Assembly (NCBI GenBank): GCA_016186955.1
Contig: JACPKP010000009.1
Location: forward strand, 161,595 to 225,594
From: Candidatus Daviesbacteria bacterium
GTDB taxonomy: Bacteria; Patescibacteriota; Microgenomatia; Daviesbacterales; UBA10151
Direction of reading: 5' to 3'
DNA length: 64,000 nt
Position 1 is the first letter of the stretch. Each line of letters begins with the position of its first letter. The translations under genes and the position numbers were made by a program. Positions 1,386 through 64,000 of the stretch are shown piece by piece. The notes under the pieces were generated by a model. It was not told where the DNA came from and searched no databases. It saw only the letters and a program-made list of their open reading frames with translations.

Positions 1386-2576
1386 TCATTCGTATCTTAA
1401 TGCCTGGATGGGGTCAAGGCGGGCGGCACGGATGGCAGGGGCGACCCCAAAAATTACTCCTACTATCATTGAAAATCCAAATGATAGCGCTACAGACCAG
1501 AAGGGGACTGTAGTTGTGATAAAATTTCCTGCGATAATAGAGAGTAAAAACCCTAAAATTATCCCGATTACCCCGCCTAAACAAGATAATGTTAAGGCTT
1601 CGATTAAGAACTGGTTTCTGATATCAATATTTCTTGCGCCAAGCGCTTTTCTCAAACCTATCTCCCTGGTTCTTTCTGTTACAGAGACAAGCATGATATT
1701 CATAATCCCTATCCCGCCTACGATTAGTGAAATAGCCGCAATTCCACCAAGGGCGATTGTCAGCACACCGGTGATTTGTGAGATAGTTGATAAGGTCTGT
1801 TCCTGGGTTTGTACAGTAAATTCATCCTCAGAGAGCTTCTTTTTTAAAATATTTTCAGTTTTTGACTGGATGGTTTTGACATCTTCAGATTTCATGGTGC
1901 TAATATAAATAGTGTTTAATTTGTCTATCCCAAATTGCCTTTGGGCGCTGGATAATGGAATAAAGACCGAATTATCCTGGTCAATCCCGAAAATTGAGCC
2001 TCTTTTATCAAACAGCCCGATGACCTCATATTTGCTTCCTGCAATATCAATTTTTTTCCCTTTTATACTTTGGCCCGGGAATAAAGTATTTTGTACGGAT
2101 ATCCCAATTACTGCTATTTTCCTGCCTGCACTATCTTCTGAAATACTAAAAAAACGCCCTTCCAACATCTTAATTGATATTAATTTTGGGTAATTAGCCT
2201 GTACCCCGAAAACTGAAGCGCCTTTGTCTGTTTTATTGGCGTATTTTAATGTGGAATTTCTTTGCACCACAGCAGAGACTTCAGCTTCTCCCGACAGTTT
2301 ATTTTTTAAGTTTGTTGCATCCTGAAGAGTCAGACGGTTAGCCTGGACGCCTCCGGGCGATCTGGCGCCGCCGATCCTTCCCGGAATTACAAATATTAAA
2401 TTTGACCCTAAACCCTGGATTTGGGATGTGATATAGCTTTTGAGCCCTGATACCAGTGAAATCAGAAGTATGACTGATGTTACACCAATGACTATGCCAA
2501 GGATGGTTAAAAAAGAACGCAGTCTGTTTGCCAATATTGTTGTAAAAGATAATTTGATAGTTTCGAAAAAATTCAT
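1386..2576 (-). CDS. ABC transporter permease, MacB/FtsX family
   Basis: 396 aa with N-terminal TM, large periplasmic domain and 3 C-terminal TMs (FtsX-like); typical MacB-type C-terminus; co-oriented with ATPase and HlyD genes. Confidence 0.8.
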   Translation of the reverse strand: MNFFETIKLSFTTILANRLRSFLTILGIVIGVTSVILLISLVSGLKSYITSQIQGLGSNLIFVIPGRIGGARSPGGVQANRLTLQDATNLKNKLSGEAEVSAVVQRNSTLKYANKTDKGASVFGVQANYPKLISIKMLEGRFFSISEDSAGRKIAVIGISVQNTLFPGQSIKGKKIDIAGSKYEVIGLFDKRGSIFGIDQDNSVFIPLSSAQRQFGIDKLNTIYISTMKSEDVKTIQSKTENILKKKLSEDEFTVQTQEQTLSTISQITGVLTIALGGIAAISLIVGGIGIMNIMLVSVTERTREIGLRKALGARNIDIRNQFLIEALTLSCLGGVIGIILGFLLSIIAGNFITTTVPFWSVALSFGFSMIVGVIFGVAPAIRAARLDPIQALRYE

Positions 2577-2682: not shown

Positions 2683-3354
2683 TTATCTTACTATTTCCCC
2701 ATCTTTAATATGTATTATTTTTTTTGCATGTTTTGCGATATTATCTTCATGGGTAATCATAATAATTGTCTTACCTGTCTTATTCAATTTTTGAAAAAGT
2801 TCTACTATTTCACCTCCGCTTTTTGAGTCCAGGTTGCCGGTTGGTTCATCGGCTAAAATTATCTCAGGATTGGTGACTAATGCTCTGGCTATCGCAACCC
2901 GTTGCTGCTGTCCGCCTGAGAGTTGGTTGGGGTGGGAGTTTAGTTTTTCAGACAGTCCAACTTCAGCAATCATTTGTTGAGCTTTCTGTTCCCGTTCTTT
3001 TTTTGAAAATCCGCTGTATATAAGCGGTAAAGCAACATTTTGCAGAGTGCTTGTTCTCGGGAGTAGGTTAAAATTTTGGAAAACAAAACCGATTTTTTGA
3101 TTCCTTAGTTTGGCTAGGGTATCCTGATTTGAGTTTGTAGTATCTTGCCCTTCAAGATTATAGGAACCGGAAGTAGGCCTGTCTAAAAGCCCGATTATGT
3201 TTATAAGTGTTGATTTACCGGAACCTGATGCGCCGATTATTGCTAAAAATTCGCCTTTTTGGACTGATAAATTTATATTTTTTAAGGCCTGAAAACTAAC
3301 AGTTTCAGCTGCTTGATAAATCTTATTGACATTTATAAAGTGAATCAGGTTCAT
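2683..3354 (-). CDS. ABC transporter ATP-binding protein (MacB/LolD-type)
   Basis: Walker [13 protein letters not shown] signature [15 protein letters not shown], Walker [14 protein letters not shown]-loop ITHE. Confidence 0.9.
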
Positions 3355-17222: not shown

Positions 17223-18404
17223 CTAATTAAAAACTCCTAAATTTGGAATAGGGGCGACATTTTCTAAGATGAAGTTTTGGGCATAGAGATAAATCCCTAA
17301 AGCTACTATTACAAAAGCAATTTTAAATTCTTTGCTGGTTAAAATCCTCTCAAAAGCTATCAGTAAAAATGGGAAAATTGGTAATGTGTAGCGGCTGATA
17401 TCTCTATGCACAACCATAATTGAAGCGACTATATAAATGAGTACAAAAAATGCCATTGGGTACAATTTTTGTTTGAGTAAATAAATTCCTCCAAAAAAGC
17501 CAAGAATAAAAATATAGACTATATCTTCAAGCCAGATCTCGCCCACCCAAAATGCATGTTTATCAAAAACCTGAAAAGGAGGTAAGGTAAGGTGGATATT
17601 ATCACCTGAATGAAAATAAGCCCAAAAGTCGTGGTAAGAAATCCCAAACCAGTAAAAAACTGTAAAAAGGCCGAGAGGAATAAGAAGAAGAGGATAGTAA
17701 GGAAGCACTCTTTTGATATTAGATTGCCACGTCACGTTCAGTAAATGAACGTGACTCGCAATGACAGACCATAGGATATAAATACCTAATGCAATAAAAA
17801 GCAAAATACCCGGTGGTCTGGTAAGCTGGGCAAAAAGGCCTGACAATCCGGTAAGGTAGATCCATAGCCATTTCCGGGATTGTTCAAATTTCATAAAGCA
17901 ATAAATCGCGGTGATTATGAAAAATATAAACATAGGTTCTGAGGATCCGACACTATGCACAATCAGCCATCTGGCAGGTAAAACTAAAAACAAAAGAGTG
18001 AGCCAAAGCGGATGGCTTGATAGTTTGAAGTCTCTAACCAGAAAATAAAAGGCTTTGGCTGAAAATAAAGTAAAAATAAAAGGAATAAAAAGCATTGATT
18101 TTAAAAACCCCAAAAATTGTGCGGCGGCCAGTATGAAAATTGAATAGAGAGGAAAATGGGAGGCATAATAAGTGGCAGGCAATGATTGAGGTAAATTAGC
18201 AATTAAGTTTGGATTGTAGAAACTTTTGGCTATGATGACATATTCCAACCCGTCAAAATTCCTGTAGATTGTATTGAATCCGTTGCTAAAATCAAGGTTG
18301 AAAAAACTTTTTATTGCAAGTAAATGAGGTAACCATATGAGTAATGTAATAATAGTTACTGCTAAATCTATTATTAAAAAAACTTTAAATACTTCTTTGT
18401 TCAT
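17223..18404 (-). CDS. polytopic membrane protein (393 aa), possible GT-C-type glycosyltransferase or Wzy-like polymerase
   Basis: More than 10 TM helices; divergently oriented to the GT2/GT-C array; contains in-frame copy of the palindromic element (17720-17765, encoding VIASHVHLLNVTW). Confidence 0.5.
   Translation of the reverse strand: MNKEVFKVFLIIDLAVTIITLLIWLPHLLAIKSFFNLDFSNGFNTIYRNFDGLEYVIIAKSFYNPNLIANLPQSLPATYYASHFPLYSIFILAAAQFLGFLKSMLFIPFIFTLFSAKAFYFLVRDFKLSSHPLWLTLLFLVLPARWLIVHSVGSSEPMFIFFIITAIYCFMKFEQSRKWLWIYLTGLSGLFAQLTRPPGILLFIALGIYILWSVIASHVHLLNVTWQSNIKRVLPYYPLLLIPLGLFTVFYWFGISYHDFWAYFHSGDNIHLTLPPFQVFDKHAFWVGEIWLEDIVYIFILGFFGGIYLLKQKLYPMAFFVLIYIVASIMVVHRDISRYTLPIFPFLLIAFERILTSKEFKIAFVIVALGIYLYAQNFILENVAPIPNLGVFN
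17720..17765 (-). repeat. second copy (inverted orientation) of the ~50-nt palindromic core element, embedded in-frame in a CDS
   Basis: Reverse complement reads gtcattgcga-GTCACGTTCA-tttac-TGAACGTGAC-gtggcaatct. Copy 1 reads gtcattgcga-TCACGTTCA-gtttta-TGAACGTGA-gaagcaatct at 5188-5239. Shared flanks gtcattgcga and gcaatct plus the identical 9-bp stem. Confidence 0.5.
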
Positions 18405-18457
18405 ATCCGAAGAATCATCAAGATGACAGGGCTACATTTTGATGTTAGCATATTAGA

Positions 18458-19174
18458 ATGATTGTAAAAAGCCTTTCCGTATTTTTCCCGGCGTATAATG
18501 AAGGGGAAAATATTAAAAAAACTGTTCTAGATGTTAAAAAAGTCTTGGATGGGTTAAACCTTAAAGATTATGAAATTATAGTTGTAAATGATGGGTCAAA
18601 GGATAATACGGCAGAGGTAGTCACAAACCTTACAAAGCAGGATAAAAGGATCAGATTGGTTGGTCATAGTTCAAATAAAGGTTATGGTGACGCCTTAAAA
18701 ACAGGTTTTTCTTCATCAAAATACTCTTGGGTGGCATTTATGGATTCGGATGGGCAGTTTGATTTCTCAGAAATCACCAAATTTTTAGAAAAAGCCGACC
18801 AGGCCGACTTAATTTTAGGGTACAGGTTAACCAGGGCGGACACAATTTTGCGGAAAGTTTTTACATGGGGTTGGAAAACCTTGGCTGAGATTTTTTTAGG
18901 CCTGCAAGTCAGAGATTATTCATGCGGGTTTAAGATGATAAAAAGAGAGGTTTTTGATAGCATCCAGCCTTTGCATGCCAAGGAAAAAGTAACACAAATT
19001 GAAATGCTGGTAAAAGCCCAGCGGAAAGGATTCAAATTTGCTGAAGTTGGGGTGCATCATTATCCAAGAAAATTTGGCCTTGCTACAGGTGCAAATTTTT
19101 ATGTTGTCCTGAGAAGTTTTAGGGATTTTATGAAATTTTGGTTGGAGCTGAATTTTAATAAACAAAAAGCATGA
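18458..19174 (+). CDS. GT2 polyprenol-phosphate glycosyltransferase (DPM1/GtrB-like, soluble)
   Basis: FFPAYNEGENI...VNDGSKDNT...MDSDGQ DXD...CGFK motif set of the DPM1 family. Confidence 0.8.
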   Translation: MIVKSLSVFFPAYNEGENIKKTVLDVKKVLDGLNLKDYEIIVVNDGSKDNTAEVVTNLTKQDKRIRLVGHSSNKGYGDALKTGFSSSKYSWVAFMDSDGQFDFSEITKFLEKADQADLILGYRLTRADTILRKVFTWGWKTLAEIFLGLQVRDYSCGFKMIKREVFDSIQPLHAKEKVTQIEMLVKAQRKGFKFAEVGVHHYPRKFGLATGANFYVVLRSFRDFMKFWLELNFNKQKA

Positions 19175-20676
19175 AAAAAATTATTCGATGGGTTGGCAGC
19201 AATAAACAAGAGGCCTGCATATTCTTTATAATCCTTTTGGTCAGCGGATCTTTAAGATTTTACAAGATTGACCAATACATGTTTTTTCTGGGTGATGAAG
19301 GGAGGGATGCTTTAATAGTCAAAGAAATGCTTACAGAGCGCCATATCCCGCTTATTGGGCCACCTACCTCTATCGGAGATATGTATAACGGGCCACTATA
19401 CTATTACATGATGTCCGTACCAATGGCTATTTTTTGGCTTAACCCCGTTGCAGCAGCAGGTATGGTGGCTTTGGTTGGGACGCTTACAGTAGGATTAATT
19501 TATTATCTGGCGCGTGAATGGTTCGGGAAATCTGCAGCTGTAATTTCATCAGTCCTATATAGTTTATCGCCTGTAAATATCATCTATTCACATTCTTCGT
19601 GGAACCCAAACCCCGCACCCTTTTTTGCGCTGCTTGCAATAATTGGATTTTACCACATAAGAAAATATCAAGATTTTAGATGGTTACTTCTTTCGGGTTT
19701 GGCAGTTGCATTTGCCATCCAGATGCATTATTTATCCTTAATACTGTTACCCATTGCCGGAGCTTTATGGATTTATGAGTTAGCCAAAGCAAAAATAAAT
19801 AAAAAAAATTTGAAGAAATTCATTGTCTATACAATCCTTGCCGTGCTTCTGTTCGCAATACTCATGTCCCCCCCGGTTATATTTGATTTCCGGCATGGTT
19901 TTATGAATTTTCATGCTTTCTCAAAGTTCTTTTTTGGTGACAGGGAAACAACAGTCAACTTAAATATTTTCAATGCCCTAGGTAGGGTTTATCCTATTTA
20001 TACGCATAACCTTATTGAAAGATATATCAGTGGAGAAAATATTTTTACAAAAGGTTTTCTATCAATAGCCATCTTATTGCCTGTATTTTTTGCAGTTGGC
20101 AGAATATTTAAAAAGAAAATTTTAGAATGGCCAACACTTACCTTAGGAGTATGGCTGATCGGAGGTTTACTCGGATTATCTTTATACAAACAAACAATCT
20201 ATGATCATTATTTGGGATTTTTAAACCCGGCGCCATTTTTATTAATTGGCAGTTTAAGTAAAATATTGGCAGGAAAATATTTTAAATGGGGAATGATTAT
20301 TTTGGTAATAATTGTCAGTGCAATAAATATTGCCAGAAACCCGTTGTTTACCCCTCCCAATAATCAGCTTAAAAAGACGCAGGAGATTTCTAAAAATATT
20401 ATTGCTGAATCTGGGAATAAACCATTTAATTTTGCCCTGATTGCCGAACACAACTATGATGCTGCATACCAATATTACTTAGATTTATATGGGTATAAAC
20501 CCAAAAAAGTACCTTTTGAAATTACAGACCAGCTATTTGTTATTTGTGAAGATAAAATATGCAAACCCGTTGGTCATCCCAAATATGAAATAGCTGCTTT
20601 TGGTTGGAGTAAAATAGATTGGGAAAAAAATACAAATGGAGTTAAACTTTTTAAATTAAGCCATTTCCAGCTATGA
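19171..20676 (+). CDS. GT-C membrane glycosyltransferase, PMT/ArnT-like (GT39/GT83-type)
   Basis: LRFYKIDQYMFFLGDEGRDAL N-terminal motif; ~11 TM helices; C-terminal periplasmic domain; ATGA coupling to flanking GT2 genes. Confidence 0.75.
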   Translation: MKKIIRWVGSNKQEACIFFIILLVSGSLRFYKIDQYMFFLGDEGRDALIVKEMLTERHIPLIGPPTSIGDMYNGPLYYYMMSVPMAIFWLNPVAAAGMVALVGTLTVGLIYYLAREWFGKSAAVISSVLYSLSPVNIIYSHSSWNPNPAPFFALLAIIGFYHIRKYQDFRWLLLSGLAVAFAIQMHYLSLILLPIAGALWIYELAKAKINKKNLKKFIVYTILAVLLFAILMSPPVIFDFRHGFMNFHAFSKFFFGDRETTVNLNIFNALGRVYPIYTHNLIERYISGENIFTKGFLSIAILLPVFFAVGRIFKKKILEWPTLTLGVWLIGGLLGLSLYKQTIYDHYLGFLNPAPFLLIGSLSKILAGKYFKWGMIILVIIVSAINIARNPLFTPPNNQLKKTQEISKNIIAESGNKPFNFALIAEHNYDAAYQYYLDLYGYKPKKVPFEITDQLFVICEDKICKPVGHPKYEIAAFGWSKIDWEKNTNGVKLFKLSHFQL

Positions 20677-21422
20677 CACCAAAAGTATCTGTAATAGTAC
20701 CCTCATATAATGAAGCAGCTGATTTAAAAAGACAGGCGATTAATCAAATCGACGGATATCTGAAAATACAAAAATACCCGTATGAAGTGCTTATAGTAGA
20801 TGACGGGTCAACCAATAATACGGTTAGTGTAGTTGAAAAGGAGATAAAAAATAAAAAGAACTTTAAGCTGATTAAAAATCCACATGGGGGGAAGGCCATT
20901 ACGGTGATGATTGGGATGCTTGTGTCAAAAGGTGATATTGCACTGTTTACTGATATGGATCAGGCAACACCTATTTATGAAATTGAAAAATTACTGCCCA
21001 AATTTGACAGCGGTTTTGATATTGTAATCGGTTCAAGGCATGGCAGAAAAGGCGCATCGTTGAGCCGTAAACTTGCAGCATGGGGTTTTGCGTCACTTAG
21101 AAATATAATATTGAACCTGCCTTTATCGGATACACAGTGCGGATTTAAGTTATTTAACAGAAAATCTATCAATTTAATATTCCCTAAACTTTTAAATGAT
21201 TGGCAGGCCATGAAACAGGAGGGGGCAGCTGTCAACGCAGGGTTTGATGCTGAAGTTTTATTCATCGCCAAGAAGCAAAAATTAAAAATAGCAGAAGTAA
21301 ATGTTTTATGGCATCATGTCCAAAATGAGAAACAGGTGCAGATTATTAAGGATGGAATTGAAGCTATCAAAGATATGGTAAGGATTAGGTTAAGTGATGC
21401 TATGGGTAAATATGGAGGATGA
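20673..21422 (+). CDS. GT2 polyprenol-phosphate glycosyltransferase (DPM1-like)
   Basis: VSVIVPSYNEAADL...VDDGSTNNT...TDMDQ...QCGFK. Confidence 0.8.
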   Translation: MTPKVSVIVPSYNEAADLKRQAINQIDGYLKIQKYPYEVLIVDDGSTNNTVSVVEKEIKNKKNFKLIKNPHGGKAITVMIGMLVSKGDIALFTDMDQATPIYEIEKLLPKFDSGFDIVIGSRHGRKGASLSRKLAAWGFASLRNIILNLPLSDTQCGFKLFNRKSINLIFPKLLNDWQAMKQEGAAVNAGFDAEVLFIAKKQKLKIAEVNVLWHHVQNEKQVQIIKDGIEAIKDMVRIRLSDAMGKYGG

Positions 21423-22807
21423 AATTTTCAATTTTCAATTTTAAATTTTCAATTTTAAGTTATGATGTTTTGATTGTCGCGCTCCTCTGTCTGACTGTGC
21501 CGCTTTTTTTCTATAAACTGGGGCAGTCTTCACTGGTGTCATGGGATGAGGCATGGTACGCGGAGATCGCCGGGAATATTGTAAAAACCGGTGATTTTTT
21601 ACACCTTACTTTTAATGGCGGTTCCTATACAGATCACCCGCCTTTTGGTTTTTGGCTGATTGCCCTATCCTTTAAATTATTTGGCATAAATGAATTTTGG
21701 GCAAGGTTTGCCCCTGCCTTGATTGGTTTTTTGGGGGTTATTACTACTTATTTTTTAGGTCGGGAACTTTTTAGCAAAAGTGTGGGTTTTTTATCAGCTT
21801 TAGCATTAACTTCATCCCCCTGGTTTCTGTATAGATCAAGATCAGGAAACCTGGATTCTATATTAACAACATTTTTTATTTTAACTGTTTTATTCGCTTT
21901 GAAAGCCAGCAAAAATAAACATTTTTTAATGCCATTTTCCCTGAGCTTAGTTGCATTACTTCTGACAAAAACACTGGCGCCTTTAACCATTATCCCTGCG
22001 CTCATCATTATTTTTTGGAAAAATAAGCTAAAATTAAGAGACTTTAGAAATGCTCTGTTACTTATTTCCTCATTAATACTTGGATGGTTTTTCAGCCAAT
22101 ATTTTTATAAATCAGATTTTTTCAGTAGGTATTTTATGATTGGATTCCCCGGTGCGGAAGTAAAAACAGATTATTTGGATAACCTGAAACTTGCCAAGGA
22201 ATATTTACACAACGGGATAGGGAAGTGGTTTTGGCCGGGGATATTTGGGATTTTTGCAGGATTGTTTTTAAGGCAAAAAAGGTTTTATATCCTTTCAACT
22301 TTTTTCGTAATATTTATAACACCGTTCTTGTTTTCAAACAAAGGTCATATTTGGCACCTTATTCCGCTTCACCCTTTTATGATCCTTGCTTTTTTTGGTT
22401 TTTTTTATGTTGTTTTGGAAAAAATATGCAAGAAGAAAATAATTGTATCCCTGATAATTTTTGCAATCGGTTTATATTTCTCACTTTTACAAATGAGACA
22501 GATTTGGTATCAGTTTGTAGATATTCCTGCTTATGTTTCTGATGAAGCAATTTTATCAAGGGAAGCAGAAAAATATGCCCAGGATTTTTATATTGATGGT
22601 GGAGATTTCGGGCCCTCTGCAGTTTTTTATTCAGGTGGGAAACATGTCAGCAAAGTTTGGGAAGGGGGATTACCTGAGTTGTTTGAGACGCCAAAACCGT
22701 TTGTACTCATAACCCACCAGTGGAGATTGGATAAATACAAAATTGAAAAAAAAAGATATAAAGTGTTAAAATCCGACCGGGATAAAATTTTAGTTATAAA
22801 AATATGA
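21419..22807 (+). CDS. GT-C membrane glycosyltransferase, ArnT/PMT-like
   Basis: LVSWDEAWYAEIAGNIVKTGDFL...HPPFGFWLIALSFKLFG is the classic ArnT/PMT loop-1 motif (DE...). ATGA overlap with upstream GT2. 5' end contains heptanucleotide repeats. Confidence 0.8.
   Translation: MKFSIFNFKFSILSYDVLIVALLCLTVPLFFYKLGQSSLVSWDEAWYAEIAGNIVKTGDFLHLTFNGGSYTDHPPFGFWLIALSFKLFGINEFWARFAPALIGFLGVITTYFLGRELFSKSVGFLSALALTSSPWFLYRSRSGNLDSILTTFFILTVLFALKASKNKHFLMPFSLSLVALLLTKTLAPLTIIPALIIIFWKNKLKLRDFRNALLLISSLILGWFFSQYFYKSDFFSRYFMIGFPGAEVKTDYLDNLKLAKEYLHNGIGKWFWPGIFGIFAGLFLRQKRFYILSTFFVIFITPFLFSNKGHIWHLIPLHPFMILAFFGFFYVVLEKICKKKIIVSLIIFAIGLYFSLLQMRQIWYQFVDIPAYVSDEAILSREAEKYAQDFYIDGGDFGPSAVFYSGGKHVSKVWEGGLPELFETPKPFVLITHQWRLDKYKIEKKRYKVLKSDRDKILVIKI
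21423..21457 (+). repeat. 5 tandem copies of heptanucleotide AATTTTC/AATTTTA immediately after the start codon of GT-C gene
   Basis: aattttc aattttc aatttta aattttc aatttta at 21423-21457; encodes KFSIFNFKFSIL in frame; unit length 7 is not a multiple of 3. Confidence 0.9.
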
Positions 22808-23766
22808 TTAAAGAAGTTTTGGTTGCGGGAAACAGGGGGACATGCGGAGGGGTCAATATGGCATTGGAATCAGTCAACCAGGTTTTGGATATTGTTGACA
22901 GGAGGGAAACAGTTTATACAAACTGGGATATTGTCAACAATACACCGATTATGAAAAACCTTGGTGACCGGGGGCTGGTCTGTGTTAAAAATGATTGGGA
23001 TAAAGTGCCGGATGGGTCCATACTACTGTTCTCCGCCCATGGTGTACCGCCAAATTTCCATGAAATTGCCAGGGGAAAAAATTTAACTGTCATAGATGCT
23101 ACTTGCCAGCTCGTCAACAGGGTCCATTCCCTGGTAAAAAATGCAGTGGATCATGGCAAACATGTGGTGTATGTTGGGGTAAAAAACCACCCGGAAACTT
23201 TAGGGGTAATGGGTGAGGTAGACGGGCAGGATATTAGTTTGGTTGAGAATATGGCTGATATTGAAAACTTAAAAATACCCGGGAAAAGTGCAGTTGTTTA
23301 TTCACAGACTACACTCTCAACAGCAGAGATTAGACAAAAAATATTAAGGCTAAAAGAGAGGTTTCCCGATATTTGGATTCCCTCAAGATGGGATATTTGT
23401 TATGCAGCGGATAATAGACAGCAAGCGGTTGAAAAGTTGGTTAAACTAGTAGATCTTTTAATAATTGTCGGTTCAAAACACAGCCATAACAGCGAGGAGC
23501 TAAGAAGAATAGGGGAGATGGCAAAAATGCCTTCATTTCTGATTGATTCACCCCTGGAAATTGACAAAGGATGGTTTGGAGAAAATATCCAAAAAATTGG
23601 GCTTTCTTCAGGGGCATCTGTTTTGGAGTCAAACACAGAAAGTGTGTTGGACTGGTTCAGGGATAAAGATGTTTTGATAAAATATCTTCCGCAAGTTGTA
23701 TCTGAGAAAAGCATGATGTTTAAACTGCCCCAGGCAAGTATAAATCTACTAAAGGCAAGATATTAA
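22804..23766 (+). CDS. ispH: 4-hydroxy-3-methylbut-2-enyl diphosphate reductase (IspH/LytB)
   Basis: Three spaced Cys in conserved contexts: AGNRGTCGGVNMAL (N-terminal), SAHGV...DATCQLVNRVH (middle), DICYAADNRQQAV (C-terminal). Length 320 aa. Confidence 0.65.
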   Translation: MIKEVLVAGNRGTCGGVNMALESVNQVLDIVDRRETVYTNWDIVNNTPIMKNLGDRGLVCVKNDWDKVPDGSILLFSAHGVPPNFHEIARGKNLTVIDATCQLVNRVHSLVKNAVDHGKHVVYVGVKNHPETLGVMGEVDGQDISLVENMADIENLKIPGKSAVVYSQTTLSTAEIRQKILRLKERFPDIWIPSRWDICYAADNRQQAVEKLVKLVDLLIIVGSKHSHNSEELRRIGEMAKMPSFLIDSPLEIDKGWFGENIQKIGLSSGASVLESNTESVLDWFRDKDVLIKYLPQVVSEKSMMFKLPQASINLLKARY

Positions 23767-23776
23767 TTTGTGTTTT

Positions 23777-23801
23777 GGACAACGTACATATAAGATTGTC
23801 C
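23777..23801 (+). terminator. weak hairpin + T-run downstream of ispH
   Basis: GGACAA-13 nt-TTGTCC followed by taattatgttttttt; AT-rich 6-bp stem so weak. Confidence 0.2.
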
Positions 23802-23837
23802 TAATTATGTTTTTTTGATATTGTTGATACAGCTTTT

Positions 23838-25319
23838 ATGCAGTTTCTTCAAACCTATAAATTTTTTAGAAATTTGATTTTGTCTCTGGTGGCCTTAAGC
23901 GTAATAGGATTTTTCTTTTCTTACAAAATCTTAGAAATTCCAGGGGGTTTGACACCGGATGAAGCTTCTTTTGGGTATAATGCTGTGCTTTTAGCCGAAA
24001 CCTTACATGATCAAAATAAGAGATTTTTACCTTTTTTTGTATTATCTTCCGACGGAGTTGATTGGAGACAGCCTGTTACACAGTATTATTTAACAGCTAT
24101 TTTTAAAATTTTTGGGTCTTCGGTCTTTCTCCTTAGATTTAGCAGCGTAATTATTACCCTCATCAGCACTATCCTGGTTTTTTTCCTTGCTAAACTACTT
24201 TTAGGGAAATATGCAGCATTTTTGGCATCTTTCTTGTTTTTAACAACCCCATTAATAATGATTCAATCCCATATGGGACTTGATAATATTATGCCCATTC
24301 CTTTCGTACTTCTTTGGATGATTAGCCTCTTACAATTTCAAAAAAAACTGAATTTAAAATATCTACTTTTAGCTGGCGTCTTCTTGGGTATAGGATTTTA
24401 CAGTTATAAGGGTGCGCGGGCAATGGTACTTGTCTGGTTTCTTTTGACCGTTTTATATTTAAAATTTGCTTTTAATAATTCATTAAAAGATTTTTTAAAA
24501 AGAGTTGTCATATTTGTTTTTGGAATATTCCCTTTTTTTGCAATAGTTCCGATTTTGGAAATAAAATATGCAGGCGCTATTTTAGGGGGTACCCATCCTT
24601 CTTTTGACTCAGTGTATGCATTTTTATACCCCTATTTTTCCAGTTTTGATCCAACATTCTTATTCATTAAAGGCGATGATCTGCCCATTCATTCAACAGG
24701 AGTACATGGAATGATGCTTCTTGCATCATCCCCGCTATTTTTCATAGGTTGTTATCAAGCGATAAAGAAAAAAAATTTTTGGTTATTTATTTTAGCTGTT
24801 TTCTTTCTTGCACCGCTTCTTTACGGCTTAATTGGTTCAGTTCACCGCGCGAGTAGGCTAATGGCAATTGTTCCCTTATATGCATTACTGGCAACATTGG
24901 GAGGGGATTTTTTATGGAGGTCAAAAATTAAAAATTTTATAAAGGGTAAAATAATATTTCTTGTGATAATTATTTTGATATTTATAAATTATTTTGACTT
25001 TGTTAATTATTATTGGTTTACATATCCTAAATTTACTCACCAGAGTGAAAATACATTAAAAGTCTTCAAGGCCTATAGAGCTTTGGCTGAACAAGCCAAG
25101 TTGAAAGGACTCACACCGTATTTGGATACAGTAGTACAAGATGGTGACAGCGGGCTATTTTTCGAGGTGATTTATTTTGACCAGCCAATAGGTAGATGGA
25201 TGAGCAAAAAGGATGTGCTGCCAACAGGAAGCATTCTCCTTACTCCACGAAGAGAAATCCCAGGTTTAGAAAAAGCCAATATTGACATACCATTCCGCCA
25301 TTTACAAATTTACCAATAG
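23838..25319 (+). CDS. GT-C membrane glycosyltransferase, PMT/ArnT-like
   Basis: ...LTPDEASFGYNAVLLAETLHDQNKRFLPFF... motif and >10 TM helices. Confidence 0.75.
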   Translation: MQFLQTYKFFRNLILSLVALSVIGFFFSYKILEIPGGLTPDEASFGYNAVLLAETLHDQNKRFLPFFVLSSDGVDWRQPVTQYYLTAIFKIFGSSVFLLRFSSVIITLISTILVFFLAKLLLGKYAAFLASFLFLTTPLIMIQSHMGLDNIMPIPFVLLWMISLLQFQKKLNLKYLLLAGVFLGIGFYSYKGARAMVLVWFLLTVLYLKFAFNNSLKDFLKRVVIFVFGIFPFFAIVPILEIKYAGAILGGTHPSFDSVYAFLYPYFSSFDPTFLFIKGDDLPIHSTGVHGMMLLASSPLFFIGCYQAIKKKNFWLFILAVFFLAPLLYGLIGSVHRASRLMAIVPLYALLATLGGDFLWRSKIKNFIKGKIIFLVIIILIFINYFDFVNYYWFTYPKFTHQSENTLKVFKAYRALAEQAKLKGLTPYLDTVVQDGDSGLFFEVIYFDQPIGRWMSKKDVLPTGSILLTPRREIPGLEKANIDIPFRHLQIYQ

Positions 25320-25367
25320 CTTGTATGGTACGCCTTCCGAGTGATTTAGGTTGATACTTGGCTTATC

Positions 25368-26443
25368 TTGTGTTATACTTCAAACCCAATGAAGGAAGTT
25401 TTACTCGCATCAACCTTGCATGACCCAAAGGGCATATTTTTGGATGATTTGCCAAAGGCGGCTGAAGCAGTTTTGTCCAATTACAGCGCCTGGATAGTCA
25501 ATACAACTAGTACAACGGACCAAAAAGTTAATGAGGAACTTTTAAAAAGAGGAGTAAATTAACAGTTACTGATTTACGGATTGTTGATGATGTTGTAGAA
25601 AATGATCATTTAAATTTACTTACTAAAACTGCATCACTGGCTGAAAAATTAGACCTTAAAAAAATTCAGTATACCGATGGGGACAGGATAATTATGGCAG
25701 GTTATCACTATCCTGAGGATTTGGTGAAAATTTCCCAAACAGCGGCTTTAGTGCCAATTATAAGAGGTTACATGAACTTAAGGAGGAGCGATGTAGATTT
25801 TATGGCGCATCATCCCCCGCTTATACAAACAGAAAATATATTTTCATCTATTTATTCAGATGCGCTTGGTTTTAAAGTAGATGTCGGAAGTACGGCTCAT
25901 GCTTTTTCCTGGGATATATTAACAGGGATTATTGAGCAATCCCCAAAATTGGAGCCGGTGAGTTTTCCTCATCCCAAGTGGATGTTAATTGCACATAATT
26001 TAGGGGCGCAAATTAAGTCTATTGAAACCAATAATGTGTTGACTTTTGAAACACCGGCGCAGTTTAAAGATGAAGTTTTGGCAGCAATCCCGGAAAATTT
26101 GAAAGTATCAAAGGCTGATTTAAACCAAAATTATCCGTTACTGCAAGAATTATATATGTTAACACTTGGCCGGAATAATATGAGAAATCCAAAAGAGTGG
26201 GAATTAAGGTTCCGTACATTGGATCAGTATCTTAAGTTTTTACAAAATCATCTGGCAGAATTTGTATCTGACCCAATCCGTCAAAACCAGATTGACCAAA
26301 ACATTATGAATGCTTTACAAATCGCCCAATCCAAAAAGGTAAGGATACTGGAGGCAATCGCCCAAGGTGATTTAGCAAATGAGGAACTAAGTTATCTCGA
26401 TAAAACCCCGATTGTACAGTCGTGGGTAGATTCATCTGCCTGA
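25368..26443 (+). pseudogene. hypothetical protein gene split by a -1 frame change at T-TTA-AAA (25541-25547); 64-aa N-terminal ORF + 249-aa ORF
   Basis: The frame of ORF 25694-26443 is open upstream to 25535 with no start codon. It overlaps the end of ORF 25368-25562 exactly at the heptamer t tta aaa a (A5 run 25544-25548). Confidence 0.4.
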
Positions 26444-26477
26444 AGAAAGATAACCTGGGAGTTGATATAATGGGTGG

Positions 26478-28010
26478 GTGGGGATTTTTAAAAAATACCG
26501 CTTGGAAATTTTGCTTCTTTTGGGCATAGTTGTACTTTTTTTTGTTTTACGCCTTCCAAACCTGACTTTGCAGCCTATTTTTGCAGATGAGGCGATTTAT
26601 ATCAGATGGGCCCAGGTGATGAGGGCTGAACCTACATTGCGCTTTTTGCCATTGTCTGATGGCAAGACACCGCTTTTTATGTGGGTCATGATCCCCTTAC
26701 TTAAATTCTTCAACGATCCGCTTTTGGCAGGAAGGTTGTTATCGGGATTTGCAACTTTGGTTGGTGTAACAATTTTAGCTTGGAAATTTTTTGGTAAACG
26801 GGTAGCTCTGTGGTCGGCATTTTTTGTTGCAGTTACCCCATATATGGTTTTTTTTGACAGGATGGCATTGGTGGATTCTATGCTGGCAGCTTTTTCTGTC
26901 TGGGCGCTTTTTTTGGCGGTGACGCTTGTGCAAACTTACAGAACTGATATGGCTATGTTTTTAGGTTATGCAATAGGTGGGGGGATGCTTACTAAAACTC
27001 CGGGTTTATTTAATGTTTTAGTTGTCCCTGTAACGTTATTTCTTTTTGATTGGAAAAGCAGAAACAGGGAAAAGAGGCTTTTGAAGATATTAGGGCTTTG
27101 GGTTTTGGCATTTGCAGTTGCATTTTTAATTTATAATATTTTAAAACTGGGGCCTGAGTTCCAAAATTTAAATTCCAGAAACCAGGATTATATCCACTCC
27201 CCTGCTGATTTATTATTACGCCCTTGGGATCCGTTTTTGCCGCATGCTTCAAATGTTTTAGATTGGTTTTCGGCATTTTTGACACTGCCGACATTCCTCC
27301 TTGTAATTGTTGGAGGTATTTGGGCTCTGTTAAAAAAACAAAAATACGCTGTGACCGTTTTGTTTTGGAGTTTTGTACCGTTACTAGTCCAGATGGCGAT
27401 GCTTAAAACTTTTACTGCCAGGTACCTGCTTTTTACCATTCCCCCGCTGCTAATTTTGACAGCATGGTTTTTGGATGAGATTTTACTAAAAACGAAAAAA
27501 AGACTTATTTTAATGCTGGGATTGGTAGTTTTATTTTTAGCATTTTCTCTTAACTTCAGTGTATGGCTTCTAACTGATCCGCAAAAAGCTCCTTTACCGA
27601 CAGAAGAAAGAAGGGGATATCTGGAGGATTGGACAGCAGGATATGGTTTCCCGGAAATTGCTGAGTATTTAATTGACCAAACTAAAAATGGCTCAGTAGT
27701 TGTAGGGACTGAAGGATTTTTCGGGACACTTCCTGATGGATTACAAATTTATTTAGACAAACATTCCCACAGCGCACCAAAAGAAAACCGGATTTCAATT
27801 GTCCCTTCCAGGGCAACTGTTTCAGCAGAACTTCGGGTTGCAGCAGAGGACCATTTAACTTTTTTTGTTGCCAATAAATCCAGGTATGATAAACCACAGG
27901 AGAATTTGAGTTTAATTTGGGAGTTTCCTAAGCCTAAAGGGGACGGTTATCAGCAGGATGCAATACTTTTTTACCGGGTTTTTCCCCTGAAAGAGGATAA
28001 AAGTAAATGA
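26478..28010 (+). CDS. GT-C membrane glycosyltransferase, PMT/ArnT-like
   Basis: IFADEAIYIRWAQVM...GKTPLFMWVMIPLLKFF...LLSGFATLVGV pattern; polytopic. Confidence 0.75.
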   Translation: MGIFKKYRLEILLLLGIVVLFFVLRLPNLTLQPIFADEAIYIRWAQVMRAEPTLRFLPLSDGKTPLFMWVMIPLLKFFNDPLLAGRLLSGFATLVGVTILAWKFFGKRVALWSAFFVAVTPYMVFFDRMALVDSMLAAFSVWALFLAVTLVQTYRTDMAMFLGYAIGGGMLTKTPGLFNVLVVPVTLFLFDWKSRNREKRLLKILGLWVLAFAVAFLIYNILKLGPEFQNLNSRNQDYIHSPADLLLRPWDPFLPHASNVLDWFSAFLTLPTFLLVIVGGIWALLKKQKYAVTVLFWSFVPLLVQMAMLKTFTARYLLFTIPPLLILTAWFLDEILLKTKKRLILMLGLVVLFLAFSLNFSVWLLTDPQKAPLPTEERRGYLEDWTAGYGFPEIAEYLIDQTKNGSVVVGTEGFFGTLPDGLQIYLDKHSHSAPKENRISIVPSRATVSAELRVAAEDHLTFFVANKSRYDKPQENLSLIWEFPKPKGDGYQQDAILFYRVFPLKEDKSK

Positions 28011-29509
28011 GTGATTTGCACAAGACTGAACATTTTGACGAAACAGCAGAACTTTCACTGGAAGTGATAAAACAGCGGGCCGTAAAAGGCGTTTTGGCAT
28101 TGACAGGCAGGACTTTTTTCTTACAACTTGTTGCACTTTCGGCAACATTCGCCTTGACTGTTTTCCTTGACCCGAAAGAATATGGGGTTTTCTTTTTGGT
28201 TTCTGCAATTGTTAATATTTTTACCTATTTTTCAGACATTGGGTTTTCCGCGGCAGCTATCCAGAAAAAGGAGAAGCTCGATAATGATGAACTGACCACC
28301 ACATTTACCATACAGCAAGGATTGGTGATAGGTTTGGTGGTCATAATTTTTGCTGCCACCCCAATCATCAAAAATATTTATAATTTCTCCGATGAATCTG
28401 TTTATCTTTTGTGGGCTTTGTCCATTTCCCTAGTTTTTTCTTCTCTGAAAACTATACCGTCAGTCCTGCTAGAGAGAAGATTGGAATTTAATAAATTAAT
28501 AATCCCCCAGATAGTTGAGGTCATAGCTTTTTACGGTATAGCAGTTTTGTTGGCTTGGAAAGGTTTCGGGGTTGCCAGTTTTACTATTGCAGTTTTGGTA
28601 AGGTCAATTTTGGGTCTTTTTACCATCTATATAATCCAGCCCTGGATGCCAAAATACGGATTGTCTAAAAATGCTTTTAGAGGACTTATTAAATTCGGAC
28701 TTCCCTATCAGTTAAATATCTTTTTAGCAGTCTTGAAGGATGACGGAATGGTAGCAGTTTTGGGCTCTATCTTGGGACCCGGCGGAGTTGGGCTTTTGGG
28801 ATGGGCGCAAAAATGGGGGTTTGCCCCCTTAAGGTTTTTTATGGATCAGGTGATCAAAGTTACATTCCCGGCTTTTTCCAGATTACAGGATAACCCATTG
28901 GAGTTGTCGAAAGCAGTTTCAAGGTCGATATCTTTTATCAGTATTTTGGTGTTCCCCTCCCTTGTCGGCCTAATACTAACAGCCCCAATTTTGGTAAGGC
29001 TTATCCCCAAATATGGCAAATGGGAACCGGCTCTTTTTGCACTCTCGCTTATTTGTTTTAATGCTTTTTGGGCAGCAGTTACCACCCCATTAACAAATGT
29101 TTTAAATGCCATAGGAAAAATTGGGATCACTTTTAAATTAATGATTATGTGGACTGTTTTAACTTTAGTTTTTGTCCCCGGACTGGCCTTGTTGTATGGT
29201 TTGAATGGGGCAGTCCTGGGGTATTCAATAGTTGGTTTGAGCTCGGTTATTGCCATAATAATTGCAAACAAATTTATCAAAGTAAATTTTTATGAGAGTG
29301 TTTTTAAACCACTTTTTGCTTCTTTGGTAATGGGGGTAGTAATTTTTTTGACTCAAGTTTTTATGTATGAAAATGTTTTACTCATTGTTGTAATGATTTT
29401 ATTGGGATTGTTAACATATGTTACAACGCTTTTCATAATTGCCAAAGATACTTTGACAGAGGATGCAAAGAAAGTATTCACTATATTTAGATCAAAAAAA
29501 GTCATCTAA
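28007..29509 (+). CDS. Wzx-like polysaccharide flippase (MOP/polysaccharide biosynthesis protein family)
   Basis: 500 aa, ~14 TM helices, N-terminal amphipathic start typical of RfbX/Wzx. Confidence 0.65.
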   Translation: MSDLHKTEHFDETAELSLEVIKQRAVKGVLALTGRTFFLQLVALSATFALTVFLDPKEYGVFFLVSAIVNIFTYFSDIGFSAAAIQKKEKLDNDELTTTFTIQQGLVIGLVVIIFAATPIIKNIYNFSDESVYLLWALSISLVFSSLKTIPSVLLERRLEFNKLIIPQIVEVIAFYGIAVLLAWKGFGVASFTIAVLVRSILGLFTIYIIQPWMPKYGLSKNAFRGLIKFGLPYQLNIFLAVLKDDGMVAVLGSILGPGGVGLLGWAQKWGFAPLRFFMDQVIKVTFPAFSRLQDNPLELSKAVSRSISFISILVFPSLVGLILTAPILVRLIPKYGKWEPALFALSLICFNAFWAAVTTPLTNVLNAIGKIGITFKLMIMWTVLTLVFVPGLALLYGLNGAVLGYSIVGLSSVIAIIIANKFIKVNFYESVFKPLFASLVMGVVIFLTQVFMYENVLLIVVMILLGLLTYVTTLFIIAKDTLTEDAKKVFTIFRSKKVI

Positions 29510-60478: not shown

Positions 60479-62158
60479 ATGGGGTATCCTTTATGGTTTA
60501 AAAAACATGCTACAATTCCACTTCTTTTGTTGCTTTTAATTTTACTCGTCCCGACTTTTTGGAGATTGATTCGGCCCGGGATTTTCTCCATGCATGATTT
60601 CCATGTCTTTAGGCTGTATGAATATGATAAATGTGTTGCAGATCTGCAGATCCCCTGCAGATGGGCGCCTGATAGCGCTTATGAATATGGTGAACCGATG
60701 TTTAATTTTTATGCGCAGTTACCCTATGCTTTTGGTGAGTTTTTTAGGTTCTTGGGATTTTCTGTATTGGATTCAATAAAAGCCCTTTTTATCTCATCCC
60801 TGGTTTTGTCTGCTACAGCGATGTTTTTACTTGCCAAACAATTTTGGGGGAATAACTTGTCAGCGCTTATCTCCGCCCTGATTTATGTGTATGCGCCATA
60901 TCGGGCAGTTGATGTATGGGTTAGGGGAGCCTTACCGGAAGCTCTGGCATTTATTTTTTTCCCGTTGATAACCTATTTTTTTAATGATTATGTTTTCAAC
61001 AAAAATACCAGATCGCTATTTTTATTTGGCGTATCTTTAGCAGGATTAATTTTGACGCATAACCTTTCTGTTTTGATGTTTCTTGTTTTCTTTTCTTTTT
61101 GGGCGATTTATTTTTTTACGAAATACAAGGCTTGGAATTTATTGCCAAAATTTATACTTTTGGGGATATTGGTTTTTGGGTTAACAGCATTTTATACACT
61201 GCCGGTGGCTTTTGAAAGTAAATTAATAACACTCACAGAAACCACAAAAGGATATTATGATTTTAATCTTCATTTTGTAACCTTGAAACAGCTTTTAATC
61301 TCCAGGTATTGGGGTTATGGGGCCTCACAATGGGGGGAAGATGACAGGTTGAGCTTGTCGGTTGGCCAAATTCAATGGATTTTACCGGTTATAATTGCTG
61401 TTCTGGTTCTTATCAAAAAAAGGCAAAGACAATATCTTAGTTTTTTCTTTCTTTTAGGGCTTGGCTGGTTTATGCTGCTACTTACCCACAACAAGTCGGT
61501 CTTAATTTGGGATCTGGTTAAACCATTAAGTTTTGTCCAATTCCCATGGAGGTTTTTAGGGTCTGCAGTTTTTCTTTTCGCTTTTGCATCAGGAGCAATG
61601 TTTACATTATTTAAAAAAAGCTACCTTAATAAACTCCTTTTTTTGGTTGTTACAACATTGCTTATCAGCTTGAATACATCTTTTTTCTTTGAGGATTTAT
61701 GGTTTAAATTCGACGATAGAGAATTTTTCAGCGGTAAAAATTATGAGCAACAGGTTACCTCGGCAATACATGATTTTTGGCCAAAAACCGGCAGTAAAAT
61801 CCCCGCAAATTTTGCCCCCAAGGCAGGATTTTTCCTTGAAGGCATGGGCAGTGCAAAATTAATTGAAAAAAGGAGTAATAAACAAATTTATACTGTTGAT
61901 TCAAACCAAAATAGTGTGGTTCAATTCCCCCTGGTATATTTTCCCGGATGGGAAGGATTTTCGGATAATAAAAAAATTAACCTTAGCCCAAGCGGGGAAT
62001 ACGGTTTAGTTACTGTAAATACCAAACCTGCCGACAAAATTATAAATTTAAAATTTGTAGATACCCCGATTAGGGTGATAGGGAATTTTGTTTCAGCAGT
62101 ATCAGTGGGGGCGCTTGTTATATTCCTAATCTTTTTTAAACGCAAAAAAATTATATGA
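60479..62158 (+). CDS. YfhO-like polytopic GT-C membrane glycosyltransferase (standalone homolog of the C-terminal domain of 45948-48398)
   Basis: IFSMHDFHVFRLYEYDKCVADLQIPCRWAPDSAYEYGEPMFNFYAQLPY aligns with the fusion protein; ~13 TM helices plus C-terminal beta-rich domain. Confidence 0.6.
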   Translation: MGYPLWFKKHATIPLLLLLLILLVPTFWRLIRPGIFSMHDFHVFRLYEYDKCVADLQIPCRWAPDSAYEYGEPMFNFYAQLPYAFGEFFRFLGFSVLDSIKALFISSLVLSATAMFLLAKQFWGNNLSALISALIYVYAPYRAVDVWVRGALPEALAFIFFPLITYFFNDYVFNKNTRSLFLFGVSLAGLILTHNLSVLMFLVFFSFWAIYFFTKYKAWNLLPKFILLGILVFGLTAFYTLPVAFESKLITLTETTKGYYDFNLHFVTLKQLLISRYWGYGASQWGEDDRLSLSVGQIQWILPVIIAVLVLIKKRQRQYLSFFFLLGLGWFMLLLTHNKSVLIWDLVKPLSFVQFPWRFLGSAVFLFAFASGAMFTLFKKSYLNKLLFLVVTTLLISLNTSFFFEDLWFKFDDREFFSGKNYEQQVTSAIHDFWPKTGSKIPANFAPKAGFFLEGMGSAKLIEKRSNKQIYTVDSNQNSVVQFPLVYFPGWEGFSDNKKINLSPSGEYGLVTVNTKPADKIINLKFVDTPIRVIGNFVSAVSVGALVIFLIFFKRKKII

Positions 62159-63768: not shown

Positions 63769-64000
63769 TAAAAAAATTTCAAATTTCAAATTTCAAATTT
63801 CAAATTTTCTTGGTGGTTATAATTATTCTTGCGGCATCACTTCGCCTTTGGAACATAGCGTTAAACCCACCTGGGCTTACATGGGATGAGGCGGCAATTG
63901 GGTATAACGCTTATTCTTTGCTCAAAACCGGTAGGGATGAATATGGGCAGATCTTACCGCTAAATTTTAAATCTTTTGGTGATTATAAACCCGGAGTTTA
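63765..64000 (+). CDS. GT-C membrane glycosyltransferase, PMT/ArnT-like (5' partial, runs off window)
   Basis: ATG 63765 overlaps upstream stop (ATGA); ...LRLWNIALNPPGLTWDEAAIGYNAYSLLKTGRDEYGQ motif. Confidence 0.7.
   Translation, partial: MIKKFQISNFKFQIFLVVIIILAASLRLWNIALNPPGLTWDEAAIGYNAYSLLKTGRDEYGQILPLNFKSFGDYKPGV
63774..63809 (+). repeat. 4 tandem copies of heptanucleotide AAATTTC (+1 variant AAATTTTC) immediately after start codon of a GT-C gene
   Basis: aaatttc x4 then aaattttc at 63774-63809; encodes KFQISNFKFQIF in frame. Confidence 0.9.

Follow-up and report, generated by a model that had tools for sequence, protein, structure and literature searches.

In-frame heptanucleotide arrays behind the start codons of two GT-C glycosyltransferase genes in a Daviesbacteria glycan locus: a possible latent frameshift switch

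In the opa genes of Neisseria, pentameric CTCTT/CTTCT repeats lie in the coding region of the leader peptide and are translated in its hydrophobic N-terminal segment, while Rickettsia genomes contain palindromic mobile elements of 100-150 bp. Neisseria pglE, a glycosyltransferase of pilin/protein glycosylation, carries a genic heptanucleotide tract (CAAACAC) of 5-34 units (PMC5953494). Long bacterial simple sequence repeats (SSRs) made of heptamers include the cyanobacterial STRR sequences, GGGAATC in Xanthomonas and Nostoc, and TAACTGA in Beggiatoaceae (PMC4679880, PMC4692102). Heptamers are the most abundant long SSR in most bacteria, as far as Mrazek (2007) is summarized in the same two papers, which relate the excess to a possible contact of ~7 nt with the polymerase and describe, for start-codon-proximal arrays in few lineages, 7-nt indels between strains and contigs ending in repeats. 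Here we describe two heptanucleotide arrays in 64,000 nt of DNA (the window) from a Candidatus Daviesbacteria bacterium (contig JACPKP010000009.1, positions 161,595 to 225,594), both placed behind the start codon of a gene encoding a GT-C glycosyltransferase. The host bacterium is ultra-small and groundwater-dwelling; bacteria that belong to the candidate phyla radiation (CPR, Patescibacteria) have tiny genomes, are thought to live attached to other cells and possess many paralogous GT-C/GT2 pairs. At a confidence somewhat short of even, we read the two arrays as slippage-born coding microsatellites that are tolerated in a permissive N-terminal tail and kept in frame by selection, i.e., as a latent rather than a demonstrated switch.

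Array 1 (21423-21457, forward strand) occupies codons 2-13 of the open reading frame (ORF) 21419-22807. Read directly from the window, positions 21419-21464 are ATGA AATTTTC AATTTTC AATTTTA AATTTTC AATTTTA AGTTATG. A previous sequence-only reading of this DNA had described five AATTTTC copies after the start codon; the five units and their position in codons 2-13 stood, but only three of them are AATTTTC and two are AATTTTA. The latter are units 3 and 5, and units 2-3 and 4-5 make up a 14-nt higher-order repeat. The longest perfect run is only 2.9 units (20 nt). Tandem Repeats Finder reported the array as 21423-21456 with period 7, 4.9 copies, 92% matches and a score of 61. The gene that carries it (GT-C gene 1, 21419-22807, forward strand, 462 aa) encodes a PMT_2/GT39-like GT-C glycosyltransferase according to Pfam (PMT_2 73.6 bits with a cut-off of 26.1, PMT 38.8, STT3 30.1) and to the alignment of 120 orthologue N-termini, which bears out the identity proposed earlier, and its homologues carry the name glycosyltransferase family 39. 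In agreement with this assignment, an acidic motif (WDEAWY / WDEAA) that is invariant among the homologues lies ~20 residues past the hydrophobic stretch. Translation of the array gives KFSIFNFKFSIL, which precedes transmembrane helix 1 (TM1) and the conserved motif PLFFYKLGQSSLVSWDEAWY.

The start codon of GT-C gene 1 overlaps the TGA stop (21420-21422) of an upstream GT2 glycosyltransferase gene (20673-21422, forward strand, from the ORF list; Pfam Glycos_transf_2, 93 bits), and direct reading of this ATGA junction (21419-21422, forward strand) confirmed the coupling site that had been noted before. Another ATGA joins the end of GT-C gene 1 to an IspH/LytB gene (22804-23766, forward strand; ORF list and Pfam). 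Because this overlap couples the two genes, early termination in GT-C gene 1 could be polar on ispH. GT-C gene 1 encodes a surface-glycan-type GT-C enzyme, for which the ATGA pairing with GT2 genes may hint at a polyprenyl-phosphate-sugar donor. When the 462-aa protein was looked up exactly, no record turned up.

The search for further heptamer arrays at gene 5′ ends that the sequence-only reading had proposed was rewarded within the 64-kb window by an array that this reading had overlooked, array 2 (63774-63807, forward strand; Tandem Repeats Finder), which consists of AAATTTC x4.9 and is 100% perfect over its 34 nt. It starts 9 nt after the ATG (63765) of GT-C gene 2, whose ORF begins MIKKFQISNFKFQIFLVVIIILAASLRLWNIALNPPGLTWDEAAIGYNAYS... 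and whose 5′ part (MIKKFQISNFKFQIF...LTWDEAAIGYNAYS; 63765-64000, forward strand), assigned from its translation and 84 homologous N-termini, runs past the end of the window. As in GT-C gene 1, the ATG overlaps the stop of the upstream gene as ATGA, in this case the TGA of another GT-C gene (62155-63768, forward strand; Pfam PMT_2/PMT and sequence). Many among the 84 N-terminal relatives of GT-C gene 2 carry PMT/PMT_2. Apart from arrays 1 and 2, the window has no array of period 5-11 that reaches 4 copies. When the window was simulated 300 times with a first-order Markov model, exact period-7 runs of at least 20 nt averaged 0.007, compared with two observed (20 and 34 nt), and a degenerate 3-unit pattern had 11 matches vs 0.95 expected. 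With at least three tandem heptamers, far above what the composition predicts, both arrays are long heptanucleotide SSRs. The window as a whole is a large glycan locus: besides 11 genes of GT-C type and several GT2 genes, it encodes a Wzx-like flippase and nucleotide-sugar enzymes. Judged from the names of its homologues, this DNA belongs to Microgenomates, near Ca. Daviesbacteria. The eleven GT-C-type genes (PMT_2/PMT/GT87) lie in 17223-29509 and 37016-64000, many of them ATGA-chained to GT2 genes and with ispH embedded in the chain. Gene starts encoding M-K-K-F/I (ATGAAAAAATT...) are common in the window.

The ATG at 21419 is the first start after a stop and the only canonical start of GT-C gene 1. 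We rejected the next in-frame start, the TTG at 21471, since a protein starting there would be without the conserved D and without half of TM1, both present in all orthologues. Array 1 is therefore coding. The closest 120 orthologues (at most 77% identity) all have a variable N-terminal tail of ~5-45 residues, which precedes the conserved D, TM1 and PLFFYKLGQSSLVSWDEAWY (the D..LLL..PLFFYKLGQSSLVSWDEAWY block) in 120/120. None of these 120 tails is encoded by an array and they hold unrelated sequence; among the 84 relatives of GT-C gene 2, a single one (P0280) has an array-encoded tail. Since nearly all orthologues of both genes do without it, the tail sequence appears dispensable. In-silico alleles with one unit more or less end at 10-17 aa for array 1, as the frameshift predicted from the 7-nt unit demands, and at 16-43 aa for array 2, while alleles differing by three units keep the frame open in both. 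Read in another frame, the AATTTTA units of array 1 give TAA stops. On its sense strand, AAWTTTC is free of stops in all frames, so that an AAWTTTC array is simply translated. Programmed -1 frameshifting on AAATTTC as an X XXY YYZ heptamer was considered and discarded: the zero frame is open and the unit of array 1 misfits the motif. Two N-terminally short homologues (P0320, P0266) were examined as possible OFF alleles, and neither has an upstream array.

Arrays in the same position occur in other Microgenomates. P0280 starts MKFSIFHSQFSIL and its DNA was found on the Logan contig L127, with the array ATGA AATTCTC AATTTTC CATTCTC AATTTTC AATTCTC overlapping an upstream GT-C gene. Scanning JGI metagenomes for 2.4 AAWTTTC units located 70-100 nt upstream of a TGGGAYGARGC (W-D-E-A) motif yielded 8 contigs (L130-L137). 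On each of them, the array follows immediately on the start codon of a GT-C gene that belongs to the gene-2 family. Six of the eight starts overlap the upstream stop (ATGA or GTGA), a seventh is set off by a short spacer, and the eighth contig starts within the array; the units are AAATTTC or AATTTTC in 3-4 copies. Beyond the two arrays of the window, this gives nine array-bearing contigs representing ~seven independent loci. All nine are in frame, with both unit types and three codon registers (MKKFQISNF, MKISNFKF, MSNFKFQ). The array-bearing loci share 42-86% identity in the conserved TM1-WDE core and come from several species. Because the loci read the array in three registers, the recurrence lies in the DNA and not in the peptide. 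Judged from these comparisons, the in-frame arrays point to a probable origin at the DNA level combined with purifying selection on the frame.

No copy-number differences or out-of-frame alleles were found at ~nine independent loci, with near-identical strains compared at two related loci, which is a small sample. These strain comparisons cover the L136/L137 and L134 loci, not the locus of the window itself. Contigs L136 and L137, which 6 single-nucleotide polymorphisms (SNPs) and one indel set apart over 1.28 kb, agree in having 4 units; the L134 protein is known from different samples in three strain variants (P0326, P0327, P0328) with identical N-termini. N-terminal length variants were not found in cluster look-ups either. 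The comparison of unit numbers among relatives, which the sequence-only reading had suggested as a check of its contingency-locus proposal, thus returned no difference between near-identical strains at the two related loci. The proposal itself came through in part: all its sequence-level features are present, but copy-number change and out-of-frame alleles were not found among close relatives.

Some of the related contigs showed additional peculiarities. In L127, the array-bearing GT-C gene (2032-2391) ends after 119 aa near the contig end, possibly a truncated or chimeric end. In L136, a 1-nt deletion in a T run (~alignment position 575) truncates the array-bearing GT-C protein to 156 aa, unlike in L137; it is either a real homopolymer-slippage knock-out or an assembly error. 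L130 (8127-8297) and L135 (reverse strand, contig end) are strain-level contigs of one JGI sample that overlap at the start of the array-bearing GT-C gene, and as one of the two begins inside the array, they represent another assembly break at a heptamer array. Finally, a Microgenomates-type GT-C gene on L129 (488-1100) is split in two frames within a stretch of AATGGTC x2.9 and AGCTATT x2.4; adding or removing one unit leaves the frame unrestored.

To the same population belong Logan contigs from the runs SRR12113424, SRR12113420, SRR12113384 and SRR12113430, on which the neighbouring GT2 and IspH proteins were found. These contigs, assembled with k=31, are 99.9-100% identical to the window, and every one of them ends inside array 1: the pieces on its left stop at 21451 or 21448, those on its right begin at 21428. 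A 20.7-kb Logan contig ends inside array 2 at 63800. No full-length alternative allele was retrievable, because the neighbouring proteins occur only on Logan contigs that stop inside the arrays. The array regions of the window contain no repeated 30-mers, and a de Bruijn graph (k=31) built solely from the window allele is linear; hence, something else in the samples creates branches. In de Bruijn simulations, the left breaks of array 1 fit an allele with one unit fewer (4 units) or three more (8 units). The right break at 21428 was reproduced by no unit-number model, and we therefore do not claim heterogeneity. For array 2, a single one of the models with 0-9 units reproduced the break at 63800, the mixture with a one-unit-shorter allele. 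However, the branching 30-mer (AAAAAATTTCAAATTTC...) is also found verbatim at the start of the L130-type GT-C gene, so that a k-mer shared with another organism explains this break equally well. Altogether, the contig breaks match an allele with one unit fewer and match shared k-mers from other loci or SNPs just as well; as a sign of unit-number heterogeneity, the breaks inside both arrays are ambiguous and suggestive only. One Logan contig starts with the Nextera mosaic-end adapter (AGATGTGTATAAGAGACAG; L003 1-19), i.e., adapter read-through is present in these assemblies and can create graph branches. A search of the JGI metagenomes with the right flank of array 1 gave 0 matches, from which we conclude that the organism is absent from the JGI contig set.

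The heptamers are part of a wider class. Scanning one genome per species for three AAWTTTC units detected at least 120 loci in many phyla, including Bacteroidales, Tidjanibacter, Thermoanaerobaculia, Saprospiraceae, Saccharibacteria, cyanobacteria and others. Among the matches listed, most arrays were intergenic near gene starts and lacked an orientation bias (41 sense vs 36 antisense), and those inside ORFs were always in sense orientation, a trivial outcome given that each frame of the antisense strand has a TGA. Across 127 arrays among the matches listed, the lengths of the perfect cores cluster at 28-34 nt, often with degenerate heptamers at their flanks; this clustering resembles a discrete element more than it does a decaying microsatellite. 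Period 7 is the dominant one of periods 5-11 in 155 kb of Microgenomates-like DNA, in line with the excess of heptamer SSRs reported for bacteria. Searching proteins with the peptide that the repeat encodes recovered nothing but short ORFs, probably spurious, that cover long arrays in many phyla, and was uninformative on the GT-C genes.

AAATTTC arrays of 27-34 nt also sit in frame inside genes, essential ones included, of other CPR/groundwater metagenome-assembled genomes (MAGs). These genes encode a LeuRS, with the array in the editing domain (L091 715-3192, reverse strand), a GatA-like amidase (L124 6810-8000, forward), a GATase_3 protein from a Daviesbacterium (L096 5896-6645, forward), a PfkB kinase (L047 7188-8000, reverse), TatD (L015 6200-6973, reverse) and a radical-SAM protein (L113 5287-7833, reverse). 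In LeuRS, the amidase and PfkB, compared by eye, the array seems to replace a variable loop with little added length. Some AAWTTTC arrays occur in GC-rich genomes, where they form inverted pairs. In GC-rich Thermoanaerobaculia MAGs, identical 30-31-nt AATTTTC arrays are arranged as such pairs 21-220 nt apart, just upstream of genes (L088 495-579 and 1928-2008; L108 3411-3509; L086 2351-2628), their AT-rich cores sharply bounded by GC-rich flanks. The window itself contains two degenerate heptamer arrays in inverted orientation at 2577-2690 (AAATCTC-like; AGTTTTG x4.3), which lie in the spacer between an ABC ATPase gene (2683-3354, reverse strand) and a MacB/FtsX permease gene (1386-2576, reverse strand) and fold as a long hairpin (z = -3.2 for the gene strand, -3.9 for the other strand).

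If the arrays are tolerated microsatellites, replication slippage would have produced each of them as a coding heptanucleotide repeat, seeded by the common ATGAAAAAATT... starts. They sit in the part of GT-C enzymes that would tolerate almost any sequence and length, the short, AT-rich and K/F-coding N-terminal tail before TM1, a tail expected to be cytoplasmic from the known GT-C topology. Because of the ATGA overlaps in the operon, an AT-rich repeat that spares the upstream protein has its first possible place in the opening codons of the downstream gene, and the ~12 extra residues would not be needed, as the orthologues lack the stretch. One unit more or less would end translation after 10-43 codons, which would make the arrays, mechanically, a latent frameshift switch. 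Compared at the sequence level, the loci indicate fairly stable arrays that are held in the ON frame; switching, if any, is probably rare, and a by-product rather than an evolved high-frequency device. Several observations weigh against this view. Both arrays of the window are at the same kind of site in the same family (2 of 11 GT-C genes, among ~57 genes), a double siting that random placement in permissive DNA yields only ~1-5% of the time. The arrays are nearly perfect at the orthologous site despite 42-86% core identity; near-perfect arrays in diverged loci require ongoing slippage, which fits selection for a mutable tract. Expansion by single units passes through out-of-frame intermediates, so that the gene would have to be dispensable at times. 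Moreover, in all samples the Logan contigs (k=31) stop within the arrays, though the graph of the window allele is linear.

These points bring up the reading that array 1 was first given, a true contingency locus. Slipped-strand mispairing would then change the unit number at a useful rate, reversibly toggle single GT-C genes and create glycan-variant subpopulations, e.g., for phage escape or host attachment. With phase variation at a low to moderate rate, we consider it a serious though less probable rival, and its extension to a lineage-wide contingency system in Microgenomates, in which tracts after GT-C start codons would stochastically switch surface-glycan transferases, a shade less probable still. 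The architecture fits, with a unit that is not a multiple of 3, placed within the first 13 codons, and a product truncated by a one-unit change; the copy numbers (5 and 4.9) exceed the PhasomeIt cut-off of 3 units for 6-9-mers, and pglE phase-varies through a genic heptamer (PMC5953494), while heptanucleotide SSRs are candidate mediators in H. influenzae (PMC2651432). Two array-bearing loci in one glycan cluster, the nearly perfect recurrence at the same site in diverged Microgenomates and the 14-nt higher-order pattern of array 1, as a trace of past slippage, argue in the same direction. So do the k=31 breaks in both arrays, where L006 ends exactly at the branch point of a one-unit-fewer allele and a 4-unit allele would account for where L001 and L002 end; however, these breaks are also explicable by k-mers shared with other AAAAAATTTC... 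loci of the L130 type, and 21428 fits no copy-number model. If one third of the alleles were ON at random, the chance of meeting no out-of-frame allele at ~nine independent loci would be ~5e-5, and the unit number is the same in near-identical strains at two loci. With only 3-5 units, the arrays are among the shorter ones compared with validated tracts, essential genes tolerate the same arrays, and an OFF state may be costly, with IspH translationally coupled downstream of GT-C gene 1.

The arrays might instead act in cis on the RNA, with A/U-rich heptamers keeping the re-initiation site unstructured or binding an S1- or cold-shock-type protein (~one per heptamer), which we regard as improbable; that such an element would set the translation of the SD-poor (Shine-Dalgarno-poor), overlapping downstream gene is possible but unsupported. 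For Beggiatoaceae, cyanobacteria and Bacteroidetes, start-adjacent heptamer repeats have been proposed as sites of post-transcriptional regulators, and heptamer repeats are reportedly bound by CspB (PMC4679880). Most arrays lie at NTGA junctions and recur in nucleotides rather than in peptide, but the fold energy of the initiation regions does not differ from that of shuffled sequences (z = 0.27, 0.37) and is similar at array-free junctions, there was no Rfam match, the listed arrays near gene starts have no sense bias (41 vs 36) and most orthologues manage without an array. That the encoded peptide (KFSIFNFKFSIL / KFQISNFKFQIF) is itself functional, e.g., as a membrane-targeting or interaction motif, is very unlikely. 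The N-termini of GT-C gene 1 and of the L127 protein are alike (MKFSIFNFKFSIL vs MKFSIFHSQFSIL) despite different subfamilies, but the loci use all three registers and thereby encode different peptides, nearly all orthologues lack the peptide, selection on a peptide would not maintain the near-perfect nucleotide periodicity, and conservation through synonymous, non-periodic codons was not seen in relatives. The alternative that the repeat is a conserved signal-anchor peptide, raised in the sequence-only reading as an argument against switching, is very unlikely in view of this absence from nearly all orthologues and the differing registers. Least credible of all is an artefact of assembly or sequencing: low-complexity repeats are prone to misassembly and short-k contigs do break at the arrays, but Logan contigs of four to five runs carry the same array sequence with both flanks at 99.9-100% identity, homologous arrays occur in unrelated JGI assemblies and the reading frame is intact.

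A literature search for SSR-driven phase variation in CPR bacteria found no report, in line with the statement in the sequence-only reading that the feature is undescribed in this lineage. If the lineage-wide contingency reading is true, CPR bacteria and a GT-C enzyme would for the first time be described as having SSR phase variation, and episymbiont-like cells would gain a bet-hedging route against phage or for host attachment. Toggling of GT-C genes by 7-nt slippage would also explain the expansion of paralogues as a combinatorial glycan wardrobe. If the arrays are merely tolerated microsatellites, as we favour, they are still reproducible short-k breakpoints that seed spurious small ORFs, and they show that AAWTTTC arrays can sit in frame in essential CPR genes.

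The arrays of the window belong to known classes, namely heptanucleotide SSRs and candidate translational phase-variable glycosyltransferases. With the Rickettsia palindromic elements they share that short repeated DNA is tolerated in frame within genes, essential ones included, yet they are ~30-nt tandem heptamers that give no sign of mobility. Like the long heptamer SSRs of other bacteria, they show an over-representation of period 7, a sporadic distribution across phyla, an often start-adjacent position, occasional inverted pairs and assemblies that end inside them; in contrast to those mostly intergenic repeats with other units, they lie inside an ORF at an overlap junction and recur in one enzyme family. 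They also sit downstream of the ATG, whereas TAACTGA repeats run forward just upstream of the start and replace the Shine-Dalgarno sequence. The opa genes resemble them in that a repeat whose unit length is indivisible by 3 directly follows the start codon and is translated N-terminally, but have 7-21+ units (PMC5953494), documented high-frequency switching and an outer-membrane adhesin rather than an enzyme as product. Compared with pglE, whose tracts are longer and vary in length between strains, arrays of the window type have 3-5 units without variation seen, and they reside in a GT-C-fold enzyme of a CPR lineage, array 1 within codons 2-13. With pglE they have in common a heptanucleotide repeat in the ORF of a surface-decorating glycosyltransferase, in which a change of one unit shifts the frame.

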